NCBI GenBank assembly: GCA_963727215.1
Contig: CAVSFR010000006.1
Coordinates: 319,761-383,760 of the forward strand
Source: an uncultured Actinomycetota bacterium
GTDB taxonomy: Bacteria > Actinomycetota > Actinomycetes > Propionibacteriales > Propionibacteriaceae
Direction: 5' to 3'
Length of the DNA: 64,000 bases
A program made the position numbers and the translations under genes. A model generated the notes under the pieces. The model ran no database searches and was not told where the DNA came from. It saw nothing but the letters and a program-made list of their open reading frames with translations. This document shows, in pieces, positions 17,217-59,040 of the stretch; position 1 is the first letter of the stretch; each line of letters begins with the position of its first letter.

Positions 17217-19418
17217 ATGCATCCCCTCGACGCCTTCACCCGCCGCTCCCTCTCCGACCTGTCAGCGCCGGTGGTTGCCCCGGCGACCACGGACGCTGAC
17301 AACTCGGTGGCGGGCGGGTGGTGGGAGGCGTTGTGGGGGGCGCAGGTGACCAGCCGGCACCTGGACTTCGTGGCCCGCGAGCTGCAGGCCGAGGGCGAGG
17401 GCTTCTACACGATCGGCTCGGCCGGGCACGAGGCGAACGCCCTGGTGGCGGCCGCGCTGCGGCCGAGCGACCCGGCCTTGCTGCACTACCGCTCCGGCGC
17501 CTTCTACGTGGCGCGCGCGGCGCAGGTCCCCGGCAGCACGCCGGTGCGCGACGTGCTGCAGGGGCTGATGGGGCTGGCCGACGAGCCGATCGCGGGCGGC
17601 CGGCACAAGGTGTTCGGCCACGCCGGTCTGGGCGTGATCCCGCAGACCTCGACGATCTCCTCCCACCTGCCGCGCGCGGTCGGCCTCGCCCTGGCCCTGC
17701 ACCGGGCCTACCGGCTGGGCGTCGCCTGCCCCTGGCCCGCCGACGCCGTGGTGGTCTGCTCCTTCGGTGACGCCTCGGCCAACCACTCGACCGCGGCCGG
17801 GGCCGTCAACACCGCCCTGAACGCCGCGTACCGGGGGCTGCCGGTCCCGCTGCTGCTGGTCTGCGAGGACAACGGCTACGGCATCTCGGTGCCGACGCCG
17901 GGCGGCTGGATCGAGGCCGCGTACGGCTCCCGGCCCGGTCTGGACTACGTGGCCGCGGACAGCTCCGACCCCGCCACCGCCCGCGCCGCCGCCGCCGCTG
18001 CGGTCGAGACCGTGCGGACGGCGCGCCGGCCCGTCTTCCTGCACCTGCGGACGGTTCGCTTCCTCGGCCACGCCGGCAGCGACGCGGAGGTCACCTACCG
18101 GACACCACGCACGATCGAGTCCGACTACGGTCGCGACCCCCTGCTGGCCACCGCCCGGGTGCTGGCCGTCGCCGGCCTGTCCGGCGCCGAGCTGCTGCGG
18201 CGCTACCTGGAGCTCCGCGCCGAGGTGGACGCCGAGGTCGTACGGCTGCGCGGCGGCGCCCGGCTCACCTCGGCCCCCCAGGTGATGGCCCCGCTCGCCC
18301 CGCGCCGTCCCGACCTGGTCGCCGAGCACGTCCGGAGCGCCTCGACGGCGGCATCGGAGGTCGCGTCGGAAACTCGTGGCGCCACCAGCAGGACGCTCGC
18401 GGAGTCCATCAACGCCACCTTGGCCGAGCTGCTGGCCGCGGACCGGCGAGTGCTGGTGTTCGGCGAGGACGTCGGCATCAAGGGCGGGGTGTACGGGGTG
18501 ACCGGCGGACTGGCGCGCCGCTTCGGCAGCGCCCGCGTCTTCGACACCGTGCTGGACGAGCAGTCGATCCTCGGCCTGGCTCTCGGCGCTGGGCTGGCCG
18601 GACTGGTCCCGGTGCCCGAGATCCAGTACCTGGCGTACCTGCACAACGCCGAGGACCAGCTGCGCGGCGAGGCCGCCACCCTGTCGTTCTTCTCCTCGGG
18701 AGCGTTCCGCAACCCGCTGGTGGTGCGGGTCGCCGGCCTGGCCTACCAACGCGGCTTCGGCGGCCACTTCCACAACGACAACGCCCTCGGCGTGCTCCGC
18801 GACATCCCCGGTCTGGTGCTCGCCTGCCCGAGCCGGGGCGACGACGCGGCCGCCATGCTGCGGACCTGCGTCGCAGCCGCGGCCACCGACGGCACGGTCG
18901 CGGTGTTCCTCGAGCCCATCGCGCTCTACCACCGCCGCGACCTGCACGAGGCCGGCGACGGCGGCTGGCTGACCGGCGACGAGGCCGGTCACGTACCCCT
19001 CAGCTCCGCCCGGCTGCACCCGGCACCCGGCACCCAGACCCCGGACCTGGTGCTGGTCACCTTCGGCAACGGCGTCCCGATGAGCCTGCGGGTGGCCCGT
19101 CGGCTGGCGGGTCAGGGTGTGGCCGCGGCCGTGCTGGACCTGCGCTGGCTGAGCCCGCTGCCGGTCGCGGACGTCCTCGCTGCGGCCTCGACCGCCGGCC
19201 GGGTGCTGGTGGTCGACGAGACCCGGCACAGTGGTGGCGTCGGCGAGGGCGTCGTGACCGCGCTGGTCGAGCACGGCTTCTCCGGACCGGTGGCCCGGGT
19301 GAGCAGCGCCGACTCGCTGGTCCCGCTGGGTGCGGCCGCCCAGCACGTGCTGCTGGGCGAGGACGAGATCGAACGTGCCGCCATCGCGGTGGCGGCCAAG
19401 GAGAGGGAGAGACGATGA
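17217..19418 (+). CDS. Fused alpha/beta TPP-dependent 2-oxoacid dehydrogenase E1
   Basis: YTIGSAGHE, TPP motif FGDAS...EDNGYGIS, GHAGSD, beta-domain FGEDVGIKGGVYGVT, FDTVLDEQ, EIQYLAYLHNA. Confidence 0.88.
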   Translation: MHPLDAFTRRSLSDLSAPVVAPATTDADNSVAGGWWEALWGAQVTSRHLDFVARELQAEGEGFYTIGSAGHEANALVAAALRPSDPALLHYRSGAFYVARAAQVPGSTPVRDVLQGLMGLADEPIAGGRHKVFGHAGLGVIPQTSTISSHLPRAVGLALALHRAYRLGVACPWPADAVVVCSFGDASANHSTAAGAVNTALNAAYRGLPVPLLLVCEDNGYGISVPTPGGWIEAAYGSRPGLDYVAADSSDPATARAAAAAAVETVRTARRPVFLHLRTVRFLGHAGSDAEVTYRTPRTIESDYGRDPLLATARVLAVAGLSGAELLRRYLELRAEVDAEVVRLRGGARLTSAPQVMAPLAPRRPDLVAEHVRSASTAASEVASETRGATSRTLAESINATLAELLAADRRVLVFGEDVGIKGGVYGVTGGLARRFGSARVFDTVLDEQSILGLALGAGLAGLVPVPEIQYLAYLHNAEDQLRGEAATLSFFSSGAFRNPLVVRVAGLAYQRGFGGHFHNDNALGVLRDIPGLVLACPSRGDDAAAMLRTCVAAAATDGTVAVFLEPIALYHRRDLHEAGDGGWLTGDEAGHVPLSSARLHPAPGTQTPDLVLVTFGNGVPMSLRVARRLAGQGVAAAVLDLRWLSPLPVADVLAAASTAGRVLVVDETRHSGGVGEGVVTALVEHGFSGPVARVSSADSLVPLGAAAQHVLLGEDEIERAAIAVAAKERERR
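17254..17307. repeat. 54-bp palindromic element (CAGCG subtype), in frame inside the E1 CDS
   Basis: CCGACCTGTCAGCGC-CGGTGGTTGCCCCGGCGACCACGG-ACGCTGACAACTCGG; same length, arms and interior motif as 55042-55095. Confidence 0.85.
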
Positions 19419-34610: not shown

Positions 34611-35873
34611 GTGCTCACCACCACCGAGGCGGACGTCCTCGCCCTGCTCGACGAGGCCGCGGCCGTGCAGACGTTGCGGGAGCTGGTTGCCGTACCCAGC
34701 GTCGGCGGCAGCGACGCCGAGAGCGAGATCCAGCACGACCTCACCGAGCGGCTGACCAGGCTCGGCCTCGAGACCGACCTGTGGCCGCTGGACCTGACCG
34801 CGCTGCGCTCCCACCCCGACTACCCCGGCGAGGAGGTCGAGCGCGGCGAGGCCTGGGGGCTCGTCGGCACCTCCGCCGCCGACAGCGAGGAGCCGCCCGG
34901 GCTCGTCCTGCAGGCTCACCTGGACGTCGTCCCGGCCGGTGACCCCGCCCAGTGGAGCTCGTCGGCGTTCGAGCCGGTGGTCACCGGTGGCGATCTCGTG
35001 GGACGCGGCAGCAACGACATGAAGGGCGGTGCGGCGGCGATCCTGGCTGCGGTGGCCGCCCTGCGCGCGGCCGGCGTCCGGCTGGTCCGTCCGTACGCGG
35101 TGCACGTCGCGATCGGGGAGGAGGACGGCGGCCTGGGAGCGTTCGCCGCCCTCCAGCGAGGCCACACCGGCGAGGCGTGCATCATCCCCGAGCCCACGGC
35201 GCTGGACCTGGTCACCGCGAACGCCGGCTCGCTGACCTTCCGGATCGAGGTGCCCGGGCTGGCGACGCACGGCAGCACCGCGTACGCCGGGAGCTCGGCC
35301 ATCGACTCCTACCTCGGCCTGCACCAGGCGCTGGCGCAGCTGCAGGAGCGACGCAACGCCGCCCCCGAGCCGCTGATGCGGCACCTGCCGGTCGCCTACC
35401 CGCTCTCGGTGGGCCGGCTGCACGCGGGCGACTGGCCGAGCAGCGTGCCGGACCTGTTGGTGGCCGAGGGCCGGTACGGCGTCAAGATCGAGGAGGACGC
35501 GACCACGGCCCGCGCCGAGCTCGAGCAGGCGGTGGCCGAAGCGGCGAGCCGCGACCCCTACCTGCGCGACCACCCGCCGCTGGTGAGCTGGACGGGCGGT
35601 CAGTTCGCCGGCGGCCACCTGCCGTCGGGCCACGTGCTGCGCGACACCGTCCGGCTCGCGCACGGCGACGTCGCCGGCGGTCCCACCATCCTCGAGCGCG
35701 GCGCCCCCTGGGGCAGCGACCTCCGGCTGTACGCCGCCGCCGGCGTCCCGACGCTGCACTACGGTCCCGGCGACGTCCGCACCGCCCACGGCCCGGACGA
35801 GCGGGTGCCGCTGGCCGAGGTCTTCACCTGCGCCCGCGTCCTCGCCCTGGCCGTCCTCCGCTCCTGCACCTGA
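34611..35873 (+). CDS. M20 ArgE/DapE-family deacylase
   Basis: AHLDVV, GRGSNDMKGG, GEEDGG, HGS, YGPG, AHGPDE. Confidence 0.88.
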   Translation: MLTTTEADVLALLDEAAAVQTLRELVAVPSVGGSDAESEIQHDLTERLTRLGLETDLWPLDLTALRSHPDYPGEEVERGEAWGLVGTSAADSEEPPGLVLQAHLDVVPAGDPAQWSSSAFEPVVTGGDLVGRGSNDMKGGAAAILAAVAALRAAGVRLVRPYAVHVAIGEEDGGLGAFAALQRGHTGEACIIPEPTALDLVTANAGSLTFRIEVPGLATHGSTAYAGSSAIDSYLGLHQALAQLQERRNAAPEPLMRHLPVAYPLSVGRLHAGDWPSSVPDLLVAEGRYGVKIEEDATTARAELEQAVAEAASRDPYLRDHPPLVSWTGGQFAGGHLPSGHVLRDTVRLAHGDVAGGPTILERGAPWGSDLRLYAAAGVPTLHYGPGDVRTAHGPDERVPLAEVFTCARVLALAVLRSCT

Positions 35874-35874
35874 A

Positions 35875-35928
35875 CCGACTTGTCAGAATCCAGTTGTCCT
35901 ATGGGACAACTCAGTTCTGACAAGTCGG
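35875..35928. repeat. 54-bp palindromic element (CAGAA subtype), upstream flank of cassette 1
   Basis: Perfect 14-bp arms CCGACTTGTCAGAA/TTCTGACAAGTCGG plus inner AGTTGTCC/GGACAACT stem. Confidence 0.95.
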
Positions 35929-36007
35929 TATCCACAGGTGGCGACGTGTCGGGTCGCCATCCACAGATTCCCCCAGGGCCTCGCAACGGCTGCCCTCGTT
36001 CACCACC

Positions 36008-36985
36008 GTGGTCGCCATGCGTCGCACGCCAAAGCCTCCCGCTGAGCTCGTCCATCTTGCCCACTGCCAGCAACAGGTCCTCACCCGGTCACAGCTCCGG
36101 CAGATCGGGCTGAGCCAAGTAGAGATCCGTGCCCAGATTGCGGCCCAGCGCTGGACGACCTGGGGCGCCCACGTGGTCGTGCTGCACAACGCAGAGCCCT
36201 CCCGGCCCCAGCTGATGTGGGCCAGCACTCTCGACGCCGGGCCGCCGACCGCCCTGGTCAGCCACACGGCGCTCGAGCTCGCGGGCTTCCGGGACTTCGC
36301 GCGGGCTGCGGCGGCAGTCCACCTCATGGTGCCGCGCGGCGCGAAGGTGAACCGCCACCCTTCCGTGGTCATCCACGAGTCTCGACGGGTGCAACCGGAA
36401 TTCCACGTTGAGAGGCAAGGGCTGCCCTGCACCGCAACCCCGCGCTCAGCTCTCGACGCGGCGGCCTGGCAATCGTGGCCGCGCTTCGCCTGCGCGATCG
36501 TCGCCGCAGTCGTGCAACAGCGGCTCTGCACCCCTGCGCAGCTCGACGACGCTCTGGCCATCGTCGGACGCATCAGGCACAAGGCCTATCTGCGCGAAGC
36601 TCTTCGCGACATCGCGGGCGGCGCGGAAGCCTTGAGCGAGCTGGACCTGGCCAAGGTGTGTCGTCGGTTCGGCCTGCAGCCCCCCTATCGACAGGTGCGA
36701 CGGCTCGACGCAAACGGTCGACGGCGCTACCTCGACGCCGAGTGGGTGCTTCCGAACGGCGAGCGGGTGCTGCTCGAGGTCGACGGCGCGCACCACGTCG
36801 AGGTGGAGCACTGGCAAGAGGACATGCAGCGCGAGCGGGCGCTTGTCGTCACCGGCTCCCGGGTGTTGCGAGCAACAGCCATGGAGCTCCGCCTCGAGCC
36901 CGCCTCGGTGGTCACCGACCTCGTCCGCGCCGGCGTACCCCGACTTGTCAGAACTCAGTTGTCCCAGAGGGCAACTGGTTTCTGA
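36008..36985 (+). CDS. AbiEi-like wHTH + DUF559/Vsr-like PD-(D/E)XK nuclease protein
   Basis: QQQVLTRSQL N-terminus, TATPRSALD, RYLDAEW, LEVDGAHH, DMQRERAL..G.RVLRAT; stop TGA inside the downstream palindrome. Confidence 0.85.
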   Translation: MVAMRRTPKPPAELVHLAHCQQQVLTRSQLRQIGLSQVEIRAQIAAQRWTTWGAHVVVLHNAEPSRPQLMWASTLDAGPPTALVSHTALELAGFRDFARAAAAVHLMVPRGAKVNRHPSVVIHESRRVQPEFHVERQGLPCTATPRSALDAAAWQSWPRFACAIVAAVVQQRLCTPAQLDDALAIVGRIRHKAYLREALRDIAGGAEALSELDLAKVCRRFGLQPPYRQVRRLDANGRRRYLDAEWVLPNGERVLLEVDGAHHVEVEHWQEDMQRERALVVTGSRVLRATAMELRLEPASVVTDLVRAGVPRLVRTQLSQRATGF

Positions 36986-36993
36986 CAACTCGG
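36940..36993. repeat. 54-bp palindromic element (CAGAA subtype), downstream flank of cassette 1
   Basis: CCGACTTGTCAGAA-CTC-AGTTGTCC-CAGA-GGGCAACT-GGT-TTCTGACAACTCGG. Confidence 0.93.
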
Positions 36994-37002
36994 CTTCGGA
37001 AC

Positions 37003-38079
37003 CTAAACGACGGCCCCGTCCCAGGCGGGCAGGATCACGTCGGTGATCAGGGCGCTGCGCTGGTCGTAGGGCAGGAAGGCGCTCTTGGCCGCGTTCAGGG
37101 TGATCCGGCGCAGATCCGCGAGCTCGTAGCCGAAGTGCTCGACCAGGACGCCGTACTCCCGGGTCAGGCTGGTGCTGCTCATCAGCTGGTTGTCGGAGTT
37201 CGCGGTGACCCGAAAACCGAGGGCGTCGAGGACCTGGAACGGGTGCTCGGCCATGGCGGCGACAGCGCCGGTCTGCACGTTCGAGGAAGGGCAGAGCTCG
37301 AGGGTGATCCGGGCGTCGCGGACGTAGCTGGCCACGGGCCCGAGGCTCGGGGTGCCGTCCTCGGCGAAGGTGATGTCGCTGATGATGCGGACGCCGTGAC
37401 CGATCCGGCGGGCCCCGCAGCCCAGGGCACCGGCGATGGACTCGACGCCGGCCGCCTCGCCGGCGTGGATGGTGAAGGGCATCAGCTGCTCGCGGAGCAG
37501 GGTGAACGCCGGCGCCCAGTCGGCAGCCGGGAAGCCGTCCTCGGGGCCGGCGATGTCGAAACCGGCCACACCCTGCTCGCGGTAGGCCAGCGCCAGCTCG
37601 GCGATCCGGGTGGTGGGCTGCTCGTGCCGCATCGAGTCCAGCAGCTGCCGGACCAGGATCGGCCGGCCGCGTTCCAGGCTGGCGGCCATTCCCTCGGCGA
37701 TGCCGTCGCGGACGGCCTCGACGGCCTCCGCCTCGGTCAGCCCACCCTCGGTCAGCCGCTCCGGGGCGTACCGGGTCTCACCGTAGACGACGCCGTCGGC
37801 CGCCAGGTCCTCGACGAACTCCCGGGCCACCCGGCGGATGTCGGAGGCTCGCTGCATCACCGCGACGGTGTGGTCGAACGTCTCCAGGTAGCGCACCAGC
37901 GAGCCCGAGTCGGCCGACTCGGCGAACCAGCGGCCGAGCGCCTCGGGTGAGTCCGCGGGCAGGGCATGGCCGATCTCGGCCGAGATCTCGAAGACCGTGG
38001 CGGGGCGGACGCCGCCGTCCAGGTGGTCGTGCAGGGAGACCTTGGGCAGCGAGCGCAGCAGGTCGAGGTCGGGGGTCAT
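37003..38079 (-). CDS. add: Adenosine deaminase
   Basis: LPKVSLHDHLDGG, FDIAGPE, TIHAGE, RIGHG, ELCPSSN, NSDN. Confidence 0.94.
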   Translation of the reverse strand: MTPDLDLLRSLPKVSLHDHLDGGVRPATVFEISAEIGHALPADSPEALGRWFAESADSGSLVRYLETFDHTVAVMQRASDIRRVAREFVEDLAADGVVYGETRYAPERLTEGGLTEAEAVEAVRDGIAEGMAASLERGRPILVRQLLDSMRHEQPTTRIAELALAYREQGVAGFDIAGPEDGFPAADWAPAFTLLREQLMPFTIHAGEAAGVESIAGALGCGARRIGHGVRIISDITFAEDGTPSLGPVASYVRDARITLELCPSSNVQTGAVAAMAEHPFQVLDALGFRVTANSDNQLMSSTSLTREYGVLVEHFGYELADLRRITLNAAKSAFLPYDQRSALITDVILPAWDGAVV

Positions 38080-55041: not shown

Positions 55042-55095
55042 CCGACTTGTCAGCGTGAGTGGCTGCCCGAGCGACCACCCACGCTGACAAGTCGG
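55042..55095. repeat. 54-bp palindromic element (CAGCG subtype), downstream flank of cassette 2
   Basis: Perfect 15-bp arms CCGACTTGTCAGCGT/ACGCTGACAAGTCGG. Confidence 0.95.
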
Positions 55096-56024
55096 GTCTG
55101 TCGGACGCCTACCGCAAGGAGGTCAGACGCAATGGGGCCGGGATCGAGCCGAACCTCCAGGTTGGTGGCGCGCAGGACCTTACGGCCGGAGATCACCACA
55201 CTTCGTTCCCGACGCATGTCGGCCTCCCACTGGCTGACCTCCATGTGGTGCCGCCCGTCCACCTCGAGCACGACCACACCGCCGCCAGGAAGCTCCCACT
55301 CGCAGTCCAGGTACCGGGCTCGCCCGTCGCTCCCGCAGCGCGCGACTTGCCGCCGTGGCAGCTCGAGGCCGAACCGACGGCACATGCGGCCCACCTCCAG
55401 CTCACCGGAGGCGGTCGCCCCGGTCTCGATGTCGGCCAGCGCGAGCCGTAGGTAGGCCTTGTGCCTGATTCGGCCGATGTGCTCCATCGCCTCCTCGAGC
55501 TGCGTCACGGTGCACAGACGCTGCTGCACGACCGCTGCGACCAAAGCGCAAGCGAAGCGCGGGAATGGCTGCCAGGCGGCCGCATCGAGAGCCGATCGTG
55601 CCGTTCCCGTCCTGGGCAGCCCTCGGCTCCAGGTGCCGTCGTTGCTGCGGAGCCTGCGCGACTCGTGCACCCGAACGCCCGGCAGGGGTGCCGACCGGGC
55701 TCCGCGGGGGATCACCAGGTGAATCTGCTCCGCCTCGCGCGCAAAGCTCGAGAAGCCGGCGAGCTCGAGGGCGGTGTGGCCGGCGAGCAAGGCCGGCGGA
55801 CCCGCGTCCAGAACCGCCATCCACATCAGCTGAGCTCGGGAGGGCGGGCCGTTGCTCATCAGGACCAGGTGGTCCCCCCATGTCGTCCACCGTTCGCCCT
55901 CGACCTGCGCCCGCACGAAGCCGCGCGTCATCGAGTAGCACCGGAGCCAGTCACGTCGGAGCACGCCATGGGCCAAGCCCGCCCGAGCGAGGGCACGTGC
56001 ATCGTTCCAGCAGTCGACAGCCAC
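55050..56024 (-). CDS. AbiEi-like wHTH + DUF559/Vsr-like nuclease protein, paralog of 36008-36985 (start inferred)
   Basis: Shares RWTTWG, LDAGPP, HTALELAGF, HESRR, RSALDAAAWQ, VAAVVQQRLCT, GRIRHKAYLR, RYLD.EW, LEVDG.HH; GTG 56024 gives near-identical length. Confidence 0.85.
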   Translation of the reverse strand: MAVDCWNDARALARAGLAHGVLRRDWLRCYSMTRGFVRAQVEGERWTTWGDHLVLMSNGPPSRAQLMWMAVLDAGPPALLAGHTALELAGFSSFAREAEQIHLVIPRGARSAPLPGVRVHESRRLRSNDGTWSRGLPRTGTARSALDAAAWQPFPRFACALVAAVVQQRLCTVTQLEEAMEHIGRIRHKAYLRLALADIETGATASGELEVGRMCRRFGLELPRRQVARCGSDGRARYLDCEWELPGGGVVVLEVDGRHHMEVSQWEADMRRERSVVISGRKVLRATNLEVRLDPGPIASDLLAVGVRQTRLVSVGGRSGSHSR

Positions 56025-56111
56025 GCAGAGACGATCAGGACGTCGACTCAAGATCTGCGCGCCGCGGGCCAGCCTGTGGACGGCTGAGGCACCCGCTCTC
56101 TCCTGTGGACA

Positions 56112-56165
56112 CCGACTTGTCAGCGTCCACGGCTGCCATCGCGACCACTGACGCTGACAAGTCGG
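56112..56165. repeat. 54-bp palindromic element (CAGCG subtype), upstream flank of cassette 2
   Basis: CCGACTTGTCAGCGT-CCACGGCTGCCATCGCGACCACTG-ACGCTGACAAGTCGG. Confidence 0.95.
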
Positions 56166-58435: not shown

Positions 58436-58439
<4 letters not shown>

Positions 58440-58489
58440 GTTGTCAGAACCTCAGCGGGGCTCTGACCCCCTGAGGTTCTGACAAGTCG
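58436..58489. repeat. Solo 54-bp palindromic element (CAGAA subtype) between convergent genes
   Basis: CTGAGTTGTCAGAA-CCTCAG..CTGAGG-TTCTGACAAGTCGG; contains both flanking stop codons. Confidence 0.9.
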
Positions 58490-59040
58490 GGCAACACCAA
58501 CGCGTCCACCCGCTCGGCGGGGCGCTGCGCCTCGACGTAGGCCCGCTCCTGCGGCCACCAGTCGGTCCGCCACCGTTCCAGGAGCTCGGTCGGGTCCCGC
58601 TCGGCGATGCGCCGCCGCCGCACCGGCTCGGGCACGTCCAGCCAGAGCGTGAGGTCCCAGGGCACCCCCAGCCGGACATCGGTGGCGGAGACCCCCTCCA
58701 CCACCACCGGTACGCCGGGCGGCACCTCCCGGAGGGGTCCGAGCATCCCGGTGACCAGGTCGGCCGGCCGGTAGCGGCCCGGTCGACCGGCGAGGAGCGG
58801 CGTCAGCACCTCTGCGACGAAGCGGTCCCGCTGCCAGGTCGCGACGTCAGGGTGGGCGAAGTCGTCGATCGCCAGCACCACTGCGTCGGCGAGCTCGGCC
58901 GCGACCCGCGCGGCCAACGTGCTCTTGCCGGAAGCGCCGAGTCCGTCGATCCCGACCCAGACCGTCCCGCTCGACCCGAGCAGCCGGCCACTCACCCACT
59001 GCGGCGCCTCATCCAGGCTGATCCGAGCGGCCACGCCCAC
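58444..59040 (-). CDS. Uridine kinase-like P-loop protein
   Basis: [24 protein letters not shown]...ERAY. Confidence 0.75.

Follow-up and report, generated by a model that had tools for sequence, protein, structure and literature searches.

The gene described here lies in a 64,000-nucleotide stretch of DNA (the whole stretch that was analysed, referred to as the window; C6:319761-383760) from a genome of 3.8 Mb in 10 contigs with 71% GC (G000), which belongs to the genus Microlunatus/Friedmanniella of the family Propionibacteriaceae. At positions 35875 to 36993 of the window, a single gene is enclosed by two palindromes of 54 bp each; we call this unit cassette 1. The left palindrome (35875 to 35928), which has an inner stem of type A, begins 1 nt past the stop codon of an upstream open reading frame (ORF) of 420 amino acids for an M20 peptidase (argE-like). 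Folded as single-stranded DNA and compared with shuffled sequences, it forms a hairpin of −22.8 kcal/mol (z score of −10.3); the right palindrome (36940 to 36993) forms one of −16.9 kcal/mol (z score of −5.1). The only real ORF between the two palindromes (36008 to 36985, plus strand) encodes an AbiEi-like/DUF559 fusion protein of 325 amino acids, for which the public gene call starts at an ATG at 36017 and gives 322 amino acids. On the other side lies add, on the minus strand and convergent with cassette 1, its stop codon 9 nt beyond the right palindrome. This layout, with two hairpin palindromes bracketing one gene between an argE-like gene and add, had been described in the first-pass annotation, and both coordinates and arrangement are as claimed. 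The less GC3-biased codon usage that had been noticed by eye was also confirmed, with a GC3 of 0.82 to 0.83 (0.83 for the gene of cassette 1) versus 0.94 to 0.97 in the neighbors.

Two further details of the earlier description hold for cassette 1 and do not extend to its relatives. The ORF extends into the right palindrome, so that the final 14 codons are palindrome encoded and the stop codon is the TGA within the distal arm, CTGACAACTCGG; as a family feature this failed, because other clades read into the palindrome in a different frame (ELS, not RLV). Likewise, the two palindromes of cassette 1 differ by 5 mismatches when compared as inverted copies and by 10 as direct copies, but over 45 cassettes the flanking copies showed a mean of 8.5 mismatches in either comparison, with 17 cassettes favoring inverted copies, 19 favoring direct copies, and 9 favoring neither. 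The inverted polarity is therefore local to cassette 1.

The protein combines an AbiEi-like module (a winged helix plus a C-terminal domain, residues ∼10 to 190) with a predicted Vsr-like DUF559 nuclease domain of the PD-(D/E)XK type (residues ∼225 to 310). The PADLOC AbiEi model matched residues 13 to 183 (E value of 1.5e-18), and an AlphaFold model of the protein (pLDDT of 83.7) retrieved the AbiEi structure 6y8q (E value of 2e-6) and Rv2827c (1zel; E value of 1e-3) in Foldseek searches. The match to Pfam DUF559 (PF04480; residues 252 to 306) is weak yet above the cut-off (22.7 bits versus 20.6 bits). When the C-terminal domain was modeled alone (pLDDT of 77.8), its top Foldseek match was the DUF559 structure 3hrl, a weak one (E value of 0.16, TM score of 0.40 to 0.47). 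No PDB sequence was matched in a profile search, and an NCBIfam search of the cassette 1 protein gave no match. The nuclease residues that had been pointed out in the sequence, a D in YLD, an E in LEVDG, and an HH pair, proved to be kept throughout: all 41 homologs compared have D243, E257, D259, and H263, and H262 is nearly invariant. The Pfam matches comprise only DUF559, MTES_1575, and AbiEi_3_N, with no transposase family among them, and the fold matches AbiEi, in agreement with the earlier statement that no HUH/tyrosine transposase is present. Cassette 1 contains no gene for an AbiEii partner, a transposase, or a recombinase. The dN/dS ratio is 0.06 to 0.17 in close pairs, and the cassette gene is under purifying selection.

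The palindrome family in the source genome

A second cassette with the same layout and its own inner-stem subtype (cassette 2, 55042 to 56165) lies 19 kb away. Its gene (55050 to 56048, minus strand, start uncertain) encodes a paralogous AbiEi-DUF559 protein that is 57% identical to that of cassette 1, and it is flanked by a palindrome with a type B inner stem at its 3′ end (55042 to 55095) and by another on its 5′ side (56112 to 56165). Solo palindromes occur in the window as well. One of them, of the same family and 55 bp long (58436 to 58490), is located between two convergent genes and overlaps the stop codon of the gene for monomeric isocitrate dehydrogenase; another, of type B (17254 to 17307), lies in frame, 30 nt past the ATG of an ORF. 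With up to two mismatches allowed, the 14-mer CCGACTTGTCAGAA has 10 matches in the window, versus 0.23 expected.

The genome-wide search that the first-pass annotation had called for returned 31 palindromes of this family in G000, 28 of which are exactly 54 bp long. Each has conserved 12-bp outer arms, CCGA(C/G)TTGTCAG, around an inner stem that varies but remains self-complementary, with a loop of 4 nt; the outer arms are common to all, and the inner stems differ among palindromes with compensated changes. Including the two copies that flank each gene, the inner type of cassette 1 accounts for 15 of the 31 palindromes and that of cassette 2 for 5. A third pair flanks an ordinary PLP-dependent cysteine-synthase-like gene. 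Assuming about 3,600 intergenic regions, the rough chance that family palindromes, given 31 of them, stand on both flanks of a given gene is ∼7e-5, and the chance that both paralogs are framed in this way is ∼5e-9. The more distant DUF559 paralogs in G000 are not framed by the 54-bp family; three of them have a unique palindrome, on the upstream side only.

About 23 of the 27 solo copies have a stop codon at a distance of 0 to 21 nt on one side or both, and 9 of the 27 have convergent stop codons on both sides. No T-run follows the hairpins, and the region from 35500 to 37400 contains no terminator-like site; given where the palindromes lie, at gene ends, they could still act as terminators that lack a U-tract. 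Solo copies probably also act as terminator-like hairpins between convergent genes. A search of the whole window against Rfam at the gathering threshold returned no family. Among the mismatches within stems, G:T (89) and A:C (83) occur about equally, without an excess of G:T, and a structure specific to RNA was rejected on this count: the pairing signal is not RNA specific and not tied to one transcribed strand.

Gene and repeat in related genomes

Each of the same-genus homologs that were retrieved lies between two 54-bp palindromes, whose inner stems agree with each other but vary from cassette to cassette. Of 50 aligned loci, 44 had a pair of palindromes that are both exactly 54 bp long. 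At least two palindromes with the exact pattern were found in 54 of 66 related loci and at least one in 63, and several of the remaining loci are truncated by contig ends or carry a single mismatch in one arm. Homologs from other families of the order, at 31 to 41% identity, are framed as well, by palindromes of 40 to 55 bp with unrelated sequence; in one such genome (G039), the two palindromes flanking the gene are the only copies in the whole genome. The protein clades track the inner-stem type, with the exception of type B, which is found with two distinct clades. Flanking palindromes at relatives of the gene, for which the first-pass annotation had proposed a test across the Actinobacteria, were thus seen within the order, both in the close loci and in the distant homologs with their different palindromes.

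Gene and palindromes also co-occur at the level of genomes. The 10 genomes of the genus that contain the gene all hold palindromes, from 10 to 176 copies, and 10 of the 14 genomes without the gene hold none; a search with the reversed pattern gave 0 in every genome. The other four gene-less genomes hold 7, 8, 22, and 54 copies. For three of them (G001, G018, and G024), the homolog search retrieved no more than a distant paralog that is not framed by palindromes, and for G002 it retrieved no match. Three of these four assemblies are fragmented or incomplete, and since cassettes often assemble as separate small contigs of about 1.1 to 1.7 kb, the absence of the gene from the four genomes is uncertain. 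The gene-bearing genome G025 has 48 copies of its own lineage's palindrome, versus 23, 1, 1, and 0 in its congeners.

Loss of the gene appears to be followed by loss or decay of the repeats. In a tree of the add protein, two genomes with neither gene nor palindromes (G004 and G014) fall inside a clade of gene-bearing genomes, which points to more than one loss. The site orthologous to the solo palindrome at 17254 to 17307 carries a type B palindrome in G000 and G005 and a type D palindrome in G002, at exactly the same position and, in all three genomes, with the 54 bp intact; the gene-less genome G007 has a decayed relic there, and in G004 and G009 nothing is recognizable. The association between gene and palindrome is specific, general, and co-varying.

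Possible explanations of the association

The first-pass annotation had likened cassette 1 to the partnership of REP sequences and RAYT transposases, and this reading is partly supported: what was observed is the association, from which we infer an action of the protein on its repeat. We consider it fairly probable that cassette 1 is an instance of a module widespread among Actinobacteria, in which an AbiEi-DUF559 gene is bounded by its cognate 54-bp palindromes, with a REP/RAYT-like logic. The conserved outer arms, in duplex form or extruded as a hairpin or cruciform, would be bound by the winged-helix module, and the nuclease domain would nick or cut at the bound palindrome. Repair that draws on the opposite arm or on another copy might then preserve the dispersed copies and keep them similar, and such repair might now and then move or exchange them, with the gene itself presumably staying single copy per repeat type and being inherited mostly vertically. 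A hydrolytic nuclease alone cannot carry out strand transfer, so the repair machinery of the host would have to account for any spread. The logic would be that of the REP/REPIN-RAYT partnerships, executed by an unrelated hydrolytic enzyme.

More tentatively, AbiEi-DUF559 cassettes might represent a second, independently evolved kind of replicator made up of a repeat and the enzyme that keeps it, in which nicking of mismatched or extruded palindromes followed by repair would homogenize the copies. The Vsr-like nuclease would be tethered to the foot of the hairpin by the winged-helix module. Such a nickase would explain the fixed length of the palindromes, the compensated changes in their inner stems, the change of type at one and the same site, and the decay of repeats once the gene is lost. 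On this reading, the DnaA-box-like sites ahead of the cassette gene (see below) would tie its expression to that of replication or DNA damage genes such as ssb and dinG. Several observations count against the proposed action of the protein on its repeats. Palindromes are present in the four gene-less genomes mentioned above, and the fold match of the nuclease domain alone is weak. Eleven of the 31 palindromes in G000 are of other types that have no cognate gene in this genome, and in G033 there are 23 palindromes of the type of its lineage and no close homolog of the gene; neither a recent burst of identical copies nor a clean filled-versus-empty polymorphism of any solo copy was found.

The palindrome-gene-palindrome unit could instead be a mobile selfish cassette that is excised or inverted by recombination between its flanking palindromes, a pair that counts as direct and as inverted repeats alike; we regard this as rather unlikely. 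A circle with one palindrome would re-enter at another palindrome or at a nuclease cut, the solo copies would be footprints or landing pads, and the nuclease would not keep the repeats but would resemble a free-standing homing endonuclease. Movement is suggested by an orthologous convergent intergenic site that holds the whole unit in G039 (genus g7), a genome without solo copies, and that is empty, without a palindrome, in G036 and G028, which belong to another genus. At the same site, G032, a congener of G039, carries an inverted, truncated, and divergent cassette (68% identical, with different outer arms) between flanks that are 90 to 93% identical. The switch of inner type at the orthologous solo site, the GC3 below that of the neighbors, and the patchy distribution of the gene point in the same direction. 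So does the report, in a table row, that the "DUF559 domain-containing protein" is enriched among predicted targets of programmed inversion, with an odds ratio of 14.3 (PMC9881135), an enrichment that flanking inverted repeats could explain.

Where cassettes reside bears on this alternative from both sides. About 30 related cassettes are located between the isocitrate dehydrogenase gene (icd) and ugd, and across genomes this locus is occupied by six or more protein clades and repeat types, which counts in favor of mobility. All of these cassettes are convergent with ugd, however, and this constancy of locus and orientation suggests long vertical residence. One or two gene copies per genome, versus 10 to 176 solo copies, argue against a mobile unit as well, as does the lack of an encoded recombinase or transposase. 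There are no target-site duplications beside the 31 palindromes of G000 and no end polarity over the 45 cassettes, and an insertion sequence or MITE with terminal inverted repeats was rejected for these two reasons. Both cassettes, 19 kb apart, are common to G000 and G017, with a different left neighbor of cassette 1; DNA identity between the two genomes is 71% in the cassette gene and 87% in the add flank. An empty argE-add site with a solo palindrome was not found, and 20 add loci of relatives (not established as syntenic) are without a full palindrome, which speaks neither for nor against mobility. A clean empty site was not found between icd and ugd either, since ugd has different neighbors and no palindrome in genomes that lack the gene. 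Mobility of the cassette and maintenance of the repeat by its enzyme are compatible with each other and not exclusive.

It is improbable, in our estimate, that the protein is mainly an AbiEi-like transcription or architectural factor that regulates its own gene, with the palindromes as operators or as insulator or terminator sites and with a nuclease that is inactive or serves unrelated repair. Such a role would fit the N-terminal 185 residues, which form a complete AbiEi-like module, and the terminator-like positions of the solo palindromes, which lie close to stop codons (0 to 21 nt) and in many cases between genes that converge. AbiEi proteins are also said to autoregulate by binding paired promoter repeats, as Hampton et al. 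reportedly found in 2018, and conserved boxes do lie upstream of the cassette gene. In cassette 1, two TCCACAG boxes (GTATCCACAGGT and CCATCCACAGAT) are located 29 nt apart at 35931 to 35966 on the plus strand, in a candidate promoter/operator region; in cassette 2, the minus strand carries them at positions 56074 and 56103. Of 52 cassettes, 49 have a TT(A/G)TCCACAGAT box upstream of the start codon, in the stretch that follows the left palindrome.

These boxes are shared well beyond the cassettes. In G000, pairs of TCCACA boxes 28 to 29 nt apart also precede ssb and the genes for a DinG-like helicase, a DUF4192 protein, and a ParA-like protein, and other AbiEi/DUF559 paralogs of this genome are likewise preceded by paired boxes. 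The dnaA region has four boxes within 170 bp directly 3′ of the gene and two upstream. The motif matches the actinobacterial DnaA-box consensus, TTGTCCACA. Since ssb, dinG-like, and other genes share the box, the motif belongs to a regulon and is not an operator private to the cassette. A cluster of TCCACA boxes at C9:62-63 kb was considered as oriC and rejected, dnaA being located on C10 with a separate cluster. A mainly regulatory protein is further contradicted by the invariance of the DUF559 catalytic-type residues and the purifying selection on the whole protein, by the compensated inner stems, which would be needless for a spaced dimer site on duplex DNA, and by the lack of a T-run after the hairpins.

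Finally, that generic terminator-like repeats merely happen to flank these genes would fit the general position of the palindromes at gene ends and the third pair around the cysteine-synthase-like gene, but it is extremely improbable given the chance estimates of ∼7e-5 per gene and ∼5e-9 for both paralogs, the framing in 54 to 63 of 66 related loci, the unrelated palindromes that frame homologs in other families (G039, with no other copy, included), and the shared subtype of the two palindromes of one cassette.

Comparison with known systems

To our knowledge, REP/RAYT is the only well-documented family of dispersed bacterial repeats that is tied to a dedicated, vertically inherited enzyme, and how such dispersed repeats persist is still debated. 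If AbiEi-DUF559 cassettes do follow a similar logic, a partnership of repeat and enzyme would have evolved more than once, this time in another phylum and with a hydrolytic nuclease, and would provide a second, mechanistically different model for how repeats are kept, homogenized, and moved. A large set of actinobacterial genes labeled "hypothetical" or "antitoxin-like" would be explained. The cassettes may also explain breaks in metagenome assemblies at their loci, may account for DUF559 genes flagged as inversion targets, and point to a predicted sequence- or structure-specific nuclease with a recognition element of roughly 54 bp. No published description of an AbiEi-DUF559 gene with framing palindromes was found in PMC or bioRxiv; the nearest is the inversion-target study (PMC9881135).

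With the AbiEi antitoxins of the type IV AbiE systems (Streptococcus agalactiae 6y8q; Mycobacterium tuberculosis Rv2827c, 1zel; PMC3985639), the cassette protein shares the winged helix and the C-terminal fold of that module. It differs from them in having no AbiEii (DUF1814) nucleotidyltransferase partner, in the nuclease fused to its C terminus, and in the location of its gene, which stands alone between palindromes. Its C-terminal match and the D...E-x-D-G-x-x-H residues are those of Vsr/DUF559 proteins (Escherichia coli Vsr; VsrA, PMC12907096; Neisseria gonorrhoeae NGO0050, 3hrl). Unlike these, it carries a fused DNA-binding module of 200 amino acids, has no adjacent cytosine methyltransferase gene, and is tied to palindromic repeats rather than to a methylation site. 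For the Caulobacter DUF559 protein VsrA, an SOS response in vivo has been attributed by the authors to endonuclease activity (PMC12907096). As in homing endonuclease genes and attC integron cassettes, one gene, with or without a promoter of its own, is bounded by structured recombination sites, and different cassettes occur at the same locus; unlike in integron cassettes, there is no integrase and no cassette array, and the gene copies stay at one or two.

The REP/REPIN-RAYT systems ("REPtrons") of Proteobacteria served as the main comparison (10.1101/119735 = PMC5581495; 10.1101/2021.07.10.451892; PMC8266576). Both arrangements have a single-copy enzyme gene flanked by cognate palindromes, with further copies dispersed in tens to hundreds, and in both, each paralog has its own repeat subtype and is mostly inherited vertically at a conserved locus. 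The repeats lie at the 3′ ends of genes and are lost or decayed where the gene is absent. The enzymes differ: in place of the HUH/Y1 transposase (IS200/IS605 TnpA-like) of RAYTs, the cassettes encode an AbiEi-like winged helix with a Vsr/DUF559 hydrolytic nuclease. HUH/Y1 transposases form a covalent intermediate. The repeats differ as well. REP hairpins have a conserved GTAG or CGTC tetranucleotide at their foot (PMC3733652); the cassette palindromes lack this tag and end in CCGA...TCGG, with flanking bases that are not conserved. Each is one long hairpin of a fixed length of 54 bp, in which the outer arms are conserved and the inner stem varies, compared to a REP of 20 to 40 bp or a doublet, and the hosts are high-GC Actinobacteria. 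As REP/RAYT systems are defined by their HUH/Y1 enzyme and the cassettes encode a different one, we regard the AbiEi-DUF559 cassette as an analogue of REP-RAYT and not as a member of it.

Cassettes and their chromosomal sites in related genomes

Two congeners of another genus, G032 and G039, carry the AbiEi-DUF559 cassette at the same chromosomal site (L124:2315-3420 and L017:1379-2510, respectively), inverted in one relative to the other. The two cassettes are 68% alike, whereas their flanks are 90-93% alike, so that the cassette is far more diverged than its surroundings; the outer arms of the palindromes also differ between the two, and the G032 gene is truncated.

The position just past ugd, which is occupied by a cassette in many relatives, contains neither a cassette nor a palindrome in the source genome of the window (G000, C5:469130-469200, outside the window). 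A tRNA 3'-end-like stretch (GGAGCTCAGAGGGATTCAAACCCCTGACC) lies there directly past the ugd stop codon and may be an attachment-site relic. In G002, a genome of the same genus in which the cassette gene is undetectable, one family palindrome is located ~800 nt from the ugd stop (L138:661-700), and this lone copy may mark a decayed cassette.

Many close homologs in the public protein collection are known solely from contigs of ~1.0-1.7 kb, a length close to that of a single cassette. The palindromes on either side of the cassette appear to be points at which metagenome assemblies break, and the cassette gene may therefore be under-represented in binned genomes.

Palindromes associated with other genes

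A 54-bp palindrome of inner type B, equal to 18 codons, lies in frame within an ORF of the window (17254-17307), 30 nt 3' of its ATG; the stop codon of the gene upstream is ~20 nt ahead of this ATG. The palindrome is also present at the orthologous position in the congeners G002, with a different inner type, and G005, and is reduced to a decayed relic in G007.

A third palindrome pair was observed in G000 outside the window (C6:607896-609079), with a spacing of 1130 bp and two differing inner types; the gene that it encloses, on the minus strand, is an ordinary one for a PLP-dependent, cysteine-synthase-like protein.

Distant paralogs and TCCACA(G) boxes

Three distant AbiEi/DUF559 paralogs in G000 (25-32% identity) each have a unique palindrome of 46-64 bp (C4:13575-13638, C4:531609-531662, and C5:333919-333964) immediately 5' of their own TCCACA box. 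The arms of these palindromes occur in 1-3 copies each across the whole genome, and no matching copy was found downstream of the three genes.

Pairs of TCCACA(G) boxes with a spacing of 28-29 nt (C8:30533, C4:56951, C5:398125, C3:50040, C9:2181, C9:62113, and C9:63003) were also detected in G000 upstream of ssb, of genes encoding a DinG-like helicase, a DUF4192 protein, and a ParA-like protein, and of several unknown genes, and dnaA itself is flanked by a cluster of such boxes (dnaA region, C10:93442-95488). This set looks like a regulon governed by DnaA boxes or one for DNA replication/damage, of which every AbiEi-DUF559 paralog would also be a member.
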